A stretch of DNA of 64,000 nucleotides from Escherichia coli (GTDB taxonomy: Bacteria > Pseudomonadota > Gammaproteobacteria > Enterobacterales > Enterobacteriaceae), in the NCBI GenBank assembly GCA_902500055.1, contig GCA_902500055.1_4131.1, one strand, 5' to 3'. The notes beneath the pieces are model-generated. The model did no database searches, had not been told where the DNA came from, and worked only from the letters and a program-made list of their open reading frames with translations. Every line of letters begins with the position of its first letter. Within the stretch, counting starts at the first letter, position 1. This document shows positions 37,800 through 38,537 of the stretch, in pieces. The translations under genes were made by a program, and so were the position numbers.

Positions 37800-38537
37800 A
37801 TGTTACCTTTTGGAAGAATGGTTAAGTACGGGAATAAAATTGAATATAAGCCACATGGTGAACAATTAATCACGACAATAGGAACAACACAATTTACAGT
37901 TCCTGCTGGCGTTACCGAAATATCAGTATGTGTTATTTCGCCGGGTGGTCAACGTGGTGCTGGTGGCGGCTTATCGTGGCGTAATAATATTCCGGTTACT
38001 AGTGGTGAGTACTTAAGTGTTTCTCTTACACATCCCAACACTACTACACCAGTTGAAAACGGTTTATATCGTGGAACTGAAAAACTATGTGTTAGCTTCA
38101 CTGGTGAATATAGGGTTGGTGGACTAGGTGGGAAAGCTGCTAACGCTATTAATGATGGTGGTGGTAATGGGGGCAACGCTGGTGTAAGTGGTGGTGCAGT
38201 CATTGGTGGTGGTGCTGGTGGCTACACTGGTAAAGGTGGTAACGGAGATGCAATCACTGGTGAAAATGGTGCTGGCGGCGGCGGTGGTGGTGGTGCATTC
38301 TATAATACCTCGTTCATTGGTACGGGTGGTGGTACTGGTATCATTGTTCAAGGTGCTAATGGCATTGGCGGTAGATACGATGGTTCATATAATGGTGGTG
38401 CTGGTAGTGGTGGTGCTGGTAAGATGTATGGTGGTGGTGGTAGTATATGGGATAATTTTTCTTATACGGCTGCTGGTGGTGGTGCTGTGCGAATAATATG
38501 GGGACGTGGGAGATATTATCCTAACAATTCAGTCTAA
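37800..38537 (+). CDS. family C member 9: N-terminal peptide + glycine-rich body
   Basis: MLPFGRMVKYGN then TQFTVPAGVTEISVCVISPGG and long GGxGG tracts; not a beta-propeller. Confidence 0.75.
   Translation: MLPFGRMVKYGNKIEYKPHGEQLITTIGTTQFTVPAGVTEISVCVISPGGQRGAGGGLSWRNNIPVTSGEYLSVSLTHPNTTTPVENGLYRGTEKLCVSFTGEYRVGGLGGKAANAINDGGGNGGNAGVSGGAVIGGGAGGYTGKGGNGDAITGENGAGGGGGGGAFYNTSFIGTGGGTGIIVQGANGIGGRYDGSYNGGAGSGGAGKMYGGGGSIWDNFSYTAAGGGAVRIIWGRGRYYPNNSV

Follow-up and report, generated by a model that had tools for sequence, protein, structure and literature searches.

Why should a single glycine-rich protein begin with the same twelve residues as the propeller proteins encoded on either side of it? 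The question is raised by the open reading frame (ORF) at 37800-38537 in a stretch of 64,000 nucleotides (assembly GCA_902500055.1, contig GCA_902500055.1_4131.1; called the window throughout), which is part of an Asteriusvirus jumbo coliphage genome (121Q/phAPEC6-like). This ORF is the ninth of 13 genes whose products share a 12-residue N-terminal peptide, the tag, and we refer to it as member 9. An earlier note on this DNA had taken the arrangement as evidence for domain swapping behind a constant, modular address tag. We found the tag in several genera and on several fold classes; tag-bearing proteins, the orthologue of member 9 in phage CBB included, are strongly enriched in virion proteomes. 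The genes concerned are the following.

28399-43468, + strand: array of 13 genes beginning MLPFxRMxxYGN; member 1 encodes a Kelch protein, member 9 the glycine-rich protein and the others (2-8 and 10-13) RCC1-like proteins.
28399-29304, + strand: first tag gene, encoding a Kelch propeller (PF24681, E 3e-26) and not an RCC1-like protein.
37800-38537, + strand: ORF of member 9, with an ATG start and a product of 245 amino acids (aa) whose N-terminus is MLPFGRMVKYGN.

When up to three mismatches were allowed, the DNA encoding the tag, ATGTTACCTTTTGNNAGAATG, occurred 13 times in the window, always on the + strand and between 28399 and 42316, with no occurrence expected from shuffled sequences. Since member 1 is a Kelch protein, even the propeller members show the tag on two unrelated repeat families. 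The bodies of the RCC1 paralogues of the window are only 21-27% identical, and seven of their 18 invariant columns lie within residues 1-12. The neighbours of member 9 match PF25390, PF13540 or PF24681 and belong to PHROG 4219 and 12615, whereas member 9 has no RCC1 or Kelch match and belongs to PHROG 4474. Its product contains 70 Gly (28.6%), with a Gly content of 43% across residues 106-228, and the earlier note was right in setting this body apart from those of the other members.

Outside the window, the IMG/VR database was scanned with a degenerate DNA pattern for M-L-P-F-x-x-h-x-x-Y-[GA]-N, which gave about 70 matches in 35 stretches. Forty-eight of these matches fell in nine contigs of 348-378 kb, each at the start of an ORF preceded by a ribosome-binding site (RBS), and the remaining ones were scattered and lacked either the RBS or the ORF. 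No match to the strict pattern was obtained in the RaK2/K64-1 group. The tag-bearing contigs include 121Q and CBB, with 11 tags each, and GAP32; contigs other than the first two had between two and nine. Together with 12 tags from the window, the 48 scan tags made 60 unique sequences. As for the positions left free by the pattern, position 5 is small, position 6 is R, I or Q, position 8 is mostly hydrophobic and sometimes N or S, and position 9 is mostly polar but variable (K, E, Q, D, V or N, with Glu in 10 of 60); positions 13-15 after the tag read I/T/V-A/I/V-P. Synonymous codons vary within the tag (P3: CCA 30, CCT 26; Y10: TAC 41, TAT 19; G11: GGG 30, GGA 17, GGT 9). The bodies that follow it comprise RCC1 and Kelch propellers, an RCC1+Kelch fusion of about 670 aa, Laminin_G_3/ConA-like domains, the glycine-rich fold and some unclassified bodies of 170-220 aa. 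Thus, the same 12 residues stand on at least five body types in jumbo-phage genomes, which bears out the idea that the tag is constant and the bodies behind it interchangeable. The tagged proteins of about 670 aa come from contigs of 355-371 kb (L021, 6413-8416, - strand; L016, 140-2161, + strand; L038, 1903-3933, + strand), and the one that was scanned, from L021, combines RCC1-like and Kelch propellers in one chain. GAP32_002 (L048, 1804-2436, - strand) begins MLPFARIFRYGD, a relaxed variant of the tag, and because the strict pattern missed it the census is an undercount. A published description of the tag was not found in literature searches of an incomplete collection.

The link between the tag and the virion was clearest in CBB. 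The strict pattern identified 11 tag ORFs in this phage (CBB_144, 247, 536, 537 and 548-554), nine of which are among the 55 of 554 ORFs listed in the table of virion proteins detected by electrospray ionization tandem mass spectrometry (Fisher p = 2.4e-8). CBB_144, the orthologue of member 9, was detected with five peptides and 34% coverage, and the tag is also present on each of the six structural proteins noted by the CBB authors as lacking in GAP32. Other phages agree with this pattern: GAP32_001, which is RCC1-like and tagged, is a virion protein by mass spectrometry (MS) (PMC5259590), GAP32_002 is annotated as 'virion structural protein', and tagged RCC1-like proteins were detected in virions of phAPEC6 (gp003, gp005, gp006, gp007, gp009 and gp010) and JP4 (JP4_577, JP4_581 and JP4_582). 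These data support the reading of the peptide as a modular address tag. In addition, the CBB virion peptide report contains LFEYANVIIPPNYK (CBB_536 residues 7-20), LLQYGNK (CBB_553 residues 7-13) and YANVIVEYATK (CBB_548 residues 10-20). As these peptides span residues 7-12 or 10-12, the tag is not removed in maturation, at least from residue 7 on. The same report contains IAPYQILYEMK, which corresponds to residues 14-24 of CBB_144, directly after the tag. As a separate observation, the CBB record KU574722.1 encodes a ClpS-like adaptor as well as a ClpP subunit, the latter of which was seen in virions (CBB_319 and CBB_104; PMC5259590 supplement). A ClpS-like adaptor is a reader of N-terminal Leu, Phe, Tyr or Trp, and any connection of such a reader of N-terminal peptides with the MLPF tag is pure speculation.

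What, then, does the tag precede in member 9? The product can be divided as follows.

37800-37835, + strand: tag, residues 1-12 (MLPFGRMVKYGN), with a predicted local distance difference test score (pLDDT) of about 50 in both AlphaFold models (member 9 and an RCC1-like neighbour).
37836-37856, + strand: linker, residues 13-19 (KIEYKPH).
37857-38099, + strand: TNF-like beta-sandwich part, residues 20-100, with the conserved motifs VPxGVT and GGGLSWRNNIPVTxGE.
38100-38483, + strand: glycine-rich region, residues 101-228, with NDGGGNGG, GGGAGGY, GGGGGGG, GTGGGTG and YGGGG, predicted to form a polyglycine-II-type lattice.
38484-38537, + strand: C-terminal strand, residues 229-245 (AVRIIWGRGRYYPNNSV), and stop codon, with the family motif GAVRIIWGxGRxFP.

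The AlphaFold model of member 9 has a pLDDT of 93.8 and a predicted template modelling score of 0.89. In this model, as in that of the RCC1-like neighbour, the first strand begins at residue 20. The strands of the beta-sandwich lie between residues 20 and 100 and are closed by strand 229-234, the glycine-rich stretch of about 125 residues is almost devoid of regular secondary structure, and the sole helix is short (H111-114). The model thus shows a TNF-like beta-sandwich with glycine-rich loops that would build a polyglycine-II lattice. Gly is invariant or nearly so at 27 positions across homologues, with GGxGG-type motifs in register, and the differences of the orthologue in phage fEgEco12 within the glycine-rich region are confined to non-Gly positions. 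The closest solved structures are the Pam3 tail fibre gp24 (listed figure 12.8), the Bxb1 tail wing brush gp33 (9.6), the Bxb1 tail spike gp29 (8.7) and four entries for the ALK glycine-rich domain (7.9-8.5), followed by an unrelated structure at 4.7; relatives in tail fibres, a context to which the earlier note had pointed, were therefore found. Pam3, Bxb1 gp33/gp29, S16 gp38 and ALK have been grouped as glycine-rich polyproline II (PPII) bundles (PMC13243192). PF21722 (Gly_rich_2) is matched by 17 of 68 aligned homologues (best E 3.8e-13) and occurs in many of the database hits, and the BFVD matches are 'glycine-rich domain-containing protein' entries; for member 9, searches of PDB sequences with either the protein or a profile yielded no meaningful match. 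Thousands of proteins have the glycine-rich body behind a different N-terminus or as a module of a large protein. In the exhaustive profile search it appeared either as a stand-alone protein of about 250 aa or within proteins of 500-5,000 aa, C-terminally in several of the matches listed, and the matches typically started at positions 7-23, that is, without the tag. Taken alone, the glycine-rich protein is unremarkable within a fold family already known from fibre tips.

The fusion of tag and body is also found elsewhere. CBB_144 is flanked by nrdD and nrdG and does not have the Asteriusvirus cassette described below, and two metagenomic contigs contain a tagged glycine-rich gene, which in L050 comes after a Laminin-G gene, whose tag variant reads MFPLPIINQ, and a small ORF with MLPFPIISQ, and in L053 after a tagged RCC1-like gene. 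Given its presence in CBB and in divergent metagenomic phages, the fusion in the window is, to judge from these sequences, old and inherited. Therefore, the part of the domain-swapping claim that stands is the constant tag with interchangeable bodies, and a recent swap at this locus is not upheld. Most other close relatives of the body start with M-[LI]-E-[LM]-L and not with MLPF. A neighbour-joining tree of glycine-rich bodies placed the MLPF-tagged members at three positions among the M-x-E-L-L members; lacking support values and built from low-complexity sequences, it is suggestive only. The M-x-E-L-L starts on most relatives and the scattered tree suggest that body and tag were combined more than once, or exchanged. 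The M-x-E-L-L start on the same body may be an equivalent tag for a different acceptor in other phage lineages. It is carried by gene 19 of PVP-SE1 (L003, 14790-15632), a Seunavirus gene that follows the DNA polymerase, and by two tandem glycine-rich paralogues (9176-10000 and 10001-10744) in L004, a Plesiomonas-associated 150-kb phage contig, just upstream of the terminase, portal and capsid genes. A use of M-x-E-L-L on multiple bodies was not shown: only the two tandem paralogues carry it in a 20-kb stretch of L004, and only gp19 does in the first 50 kb of PVP-SE1.

Altogether, we consider it reasonably probable that the tag is a retained N-terminal peptide for virion incorporation or docking that mounts interchangeable ligand-binding heads, with member 9 as an auxiliary adhesin head. 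Residues 1-12, which are common to the RCC1 and Kelch neighbours nearly letter for letter, would form a flexible extension with the 7-residue linker, and the tag would dock whichever head follows onto a common acceptor on the particle. Each head would be expressed from its own terminator-promoter-RBS cassette, so that the phage would carry a mixed set of ligand-binding heads, to which member 9 would contribute a glycine-rich head acting as an adhesin, whose ligand probably lies on the host surface or in the environment. In this reading, the tag itself would cause incorporation and the heads would bind ligands. The docking site would be external, on a hair or whisker, the tail or the capsid surface, because the bodies have lectin- or receptor-binding-type folds and the closest solved structures occupy an external position. 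Both phAPEC6 and CBB possess unexplained hair-like appendages on tail and capsid. We propose more tentatively, as a speculative extension, that MLPFxRhxxYGN could be a natural, non-cleaved plug-and-play display tag whose surface acceptor would plausibly be the 'hairy' whiskers or capsid appendages of phAPEC6/CBB, where it would create a mixed and fast-evolving lectin-like coat (RCC1, Kelch, Laminin-G and glycine-rich).

Several observations weigh against a docking tag for external heads. The invariance of residues 1-4 and 10-12 arises partly by construction, since the scan pattern fixed these positions. CBB_550 and CBB_554 have the tag and were not detected in the virion, and the Asteriusvirus glycine-rich protein is absent from the 49 proteins detected in JP4 virions, which counts for little, since its tryptic peptides are mostly Gly-rich and 30-47 residues long. 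The N-terminal tryptic peptide MLPFxR was searched for in the CBB peptide report and was not found, and with residues 1-6 unseen in peptides the tag may undergo a limited N-terminal trimming. Virion MS does not separate surface from interior. Seunavirus homologues without the MLPF tag adjoin the DNA polymerase among non-structural genes. Regarding the body, no Pfam family, PF21722 included, matched member 9 itself at E <= 0.1, and the Foldseek comparison with the PDB that the earlier note had suggested placed the same proteins (Pam3 gp24, Bxb1 gp33/gp29) on top with weak scores (E 1.7e-3, TM 0.27).

The explanation that best survives beside the docking tag is a capsid-targeting sequence (CTS) of the T4 type, which would bring diverse proteins into the prohead or inner body, to be packaged together with the DNA, injected and active in the host cell. 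In T4, the gp21 protease cuts the CTS off after an (L/I)xE site, and the cargo is internal. A short N-terminal peptide on unrelated proteins in a variable locus is indeed the pattern of T4 IPI/IPII/IPIII, and the phages studied here encode a T4-type prohead core protease. Moreover, phAPEC6 has an inner body of unassigned components, for which its authors proposed the RCC1-like proteins; these proteins are of low abundance in phAPEC6 and JP4, and an internal position would be equally compatible with the MS data. However, cleavage removes the T4 CTS, whereas mature CBB virion proteins still contain tag residues 7-12. The tag has no conserved Glu or (L/I)xE site, position 9 being as variable as described above, and the bodies are lectin- or receptor-binding-type folds, with parts of external fibres as the closest solved structures to member 9. 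Weighing both sides, we regard internal targeting as unlikely.

Could the conserved 5′ end instead have no role in the protein? In this explanation, the cassette and the first 36 nt would owe their identity to gene conversion between the tandem paralogues or be under selection as an element for the initiation of transcription or translation, and the glycine-rich gene would have landed behind one of its copies. The intergenic elements around member 9 are the following.

37734-37762, + strand: intrinsic-terminator-like hairpin GCCAGTACAGAGTACTGGC with T-run, at the 5′ end of the repeated intergenic cassette.
37763-37799, + strand: promoter-like conserved stretch (putative promoter), with TATAAT at 37777-37782 and the RBS AAAGGAGGG at 37787-37795.
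38543-38575, + strand: terminator-like hairpin with T-run, 3′ of the ORF of member 9, which opens the next cassette.

The arms of the first hairpin are GCCAGTAC...GTACTGGC and lie with the T-run at 37734-37752. The cassette, consisting of the hairpin, the TATAAT stretch and the RBS (written AAAGGAGG in cassettes upstream of tag genes), is common to 10 of the 13 members, and member 9 does keep both cassette (37734-37799) and tag, as had been noticed earlier. In the window, the DNA is nearly identical from the hairpin through codon 12 or 13, just after which the identity collapses, and the RBS and start context lie inside the same conserved block, all of which would suit an element conserved as DNA. 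By contrast, the peptide is conserved in other genera with different DNA and cassettes, and some tag genes have no cassette (CBB_144 between nrdD and nrdG; CBB_548-554, operon-like). The synonymous variation of the conserved tag residues and the strong enrichment of tag proteins in virion proteomes likewise speak against this explanation, which we consider improbable. In several cassettes, ATGAATAAAGGAGG (MNKGG) lies upstream of and in frame with the tag gene, within 37783-37799 and at the matching position elsewhere; ORF callers therefore extend the N-terminus (MNKGGN-MLPF..., e.g. JP4_581 and several window ORFs), which hides the true position of the tag. Two tag genes are split into two ORFs each, member 2 (29317-30036 and 30041-30466) and member 13 (42316-42540 and 42572-43468). 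The tag of member 13 is degenerate (MLPFGRIITSSK), and its split is inherited, since the 121Q counterpart is also split (genes 235 and 234). A tRNA scan found no tRNA genes in the window.

The remaining question was whether the 245-aa frame is the right one, as the earlier note had named a wrong frame of a GGT-rich repeat as what would refute it. Most Gly codons of the ORF are indeed GGT (50 of 70), and the repeats open a second frame.

38188-38496, + strand: Val-rich alternative-frame ORF of 102 aa, an artefact of the GGT repeats.

The 245-aa product, whose residues 30-50 are TQFTVPAGVTEISVCVISPGG, matches untranslated stretches of two phages, ECO103 4-12-1 and EC22.5-2, at 100% identity and the product of 121Q gene 243, a 'hypothetical protein' by annotation, at 99.2%. 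An orthologue at >=80% query coverage is present in 18 phage records (85-100% amino-acid identity), and a word-indexed search of the database gave 194 homologues, across which non-Gly residues such as P35, L58, Y142, R231, W234 and P241 are kept. The exhaustive profile search found 6,535 clusters in the glycine-rich family, 1,783 of them at E <= 1e-30. The ORF has its own RBS and terminators on both sides, and MS peptides of CBB_144 (IAPYQILYEMK and NANIINDGGGNGGTATQGGSR) lie in the same frame. The orthologue records, the non-Gly conservation, the confident AlphaFold model and the CBB_144 peptides confirm that the 245-aa ORF is a real gene in the correct frame.

Annotation of this gene has been inconsistent. 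In the phAPEC6 record (MK817115.1), the sole coding sequence here is the Val-rich frame, gp004 (L043, 7716-8018), while tblastn matches the 245-aa protein at 7325-8056, where no coding sequence is annotated. Since the 245-aa ORF is unannotated, the published phAPEC6 virion proteome could not detect the glycine-rich protein. The orthologue in CMSTMSU (L044, MH494197.1, 'UNVERIFIED_ORG' record, 1501-2235) is frameshifted and its name was transferred from a mycobacterial PGRS protein, and in BFVD the homologue from Erwinia phage pEa_SNUABM_47 goes by 'PE-PGRS family protein' too. These two misleading names are annotation transfers, and a Pfam search gave no PE domain match for the window protein. 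Relative to fEgEco12, the ORF shows nine synonymous and 15 non-synonymous changes, which is only mildly purifying. The ratio of non-synonymous to synonymous substitution rates within Asteriusvirus was dropped, as the orthologues are too alike (2-24 codon differences) and CMSTMSU is unusable because of its frameshifts. P0002, a 206-aa product of a Logan contig, lacks the tag (MNKGGN is joined to KIEYK at the common GGGAAT) and an internal glycine block, and probably represents an assembly collapse at short repeats and not a natural deletion. That the ORF is unreal, either a wrong frame or a pseudogene decaying in the RCC1 array, would fit the phAPEC6 annotation, the CMSTMSU frameshifts and the fEgEco12 changes, but is extremely improbable given a full-length ORF intact in at least 17 phages, the thousands of family clusters, the pLDDT of the model, the CBB peptides and the flanking signals.

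These results indicate that, for five unrelated fold classes in several jumbo-phage genera, virion incorporation can be predicted from an N-terminal peptide of 12 residues. The tag accounts for the virion presence of all six CBB-specific structural proteins and of the so-called DNA-condensation RCC1 proteins, and, on these data, 'chromosome condensation' appears to be a misleading label for the RCC1-like genes. The results also provide concrete candidate proteins for the hairs or whiskers that decorate these phages and correct a mis-annotation, since the glycine-rich gene is called in an incorrect frame in phAPEC6 and bears the PE-PGRS name in further records. Should the peptide prove to be all that incorporation requires, foreign proteins could be displayed on giant phage particles by means of a very small handle. 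The wider tag pattern matters more than the glycine-rich protein alone.

Compared with known systems, the body of member 9 is closest to the cyanophage Pam3 tail fibre gp24 (PDB 7YPX/7YFW), which combines TNF-like with glycine-rich domains. The predicted fold of member 9 recurs in the distal, receptor-recognising half of Pam3 gp24, in Bxb1 gp33/gp29 and in the ALK glycine-rich domain, and the two proteins of mycobacteriophage Bxb1 (gp33, tail wing brush, and gp29, tail spike; PDB 9D93), together with the gp38 adhesin of Salmonella phage S16, are related known systems. Pam3 gp24 and member 9 share 16% identity, with no match at the sequence level. Their attachment also differs: Pam3 gp24 trimerises and docks to the baseplate by an N-terminal alpha-helical bundle, whereas member 9 has 19 unstructured residues of tag and linker. 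A Tfa-like chaperone gene, adjacent in the Pam3 type, is not found beside member 9, where both neighbours are RCC1-like tag genes. Homologues matching PF21722 have VPxGVT, NDGGGNGG, GGGAGGY and VRIIWG in common with member 9, which belongs to a divergent GGGLSWRNNIPV subfamily. The extracellular glycine-rich domain of ALK/LTK (PDB 7LIR, 7LRZ and 7LS0) belongs to animal receptor tyrosine kinases that bind cytokine ligands and has no phage context; what it shares with member 9 is the fold, and not necessarily descent.

For the tag, the nearest parallel is T4, in which IPI/IPII/IPIII, otherwise unrelated proteins of a variable locus, are directed into the virion by an N-terminal peptide of about 10 residues. 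Like these CTS proteins, the tagged proteins are unrelated virion proteins with a short peptide at the N-terminus; unlike them, they have no conserved Glu in that peptide and keep residues 7-12 of it in the mature virion. A second parallel is found in branched tailspike systems (CBA120, SP6/K1-5 and the Klebsiella phages of the RaK2/K64-1 type), in which a conserved N-terminal anchor carries exchangeable distal specificity modules. Those anchors, however, are folded domains of about 100 residues or more on trimeric fibres or spikes, whereas here a 12-residue peptide stands on small globular heads of five fold classes.

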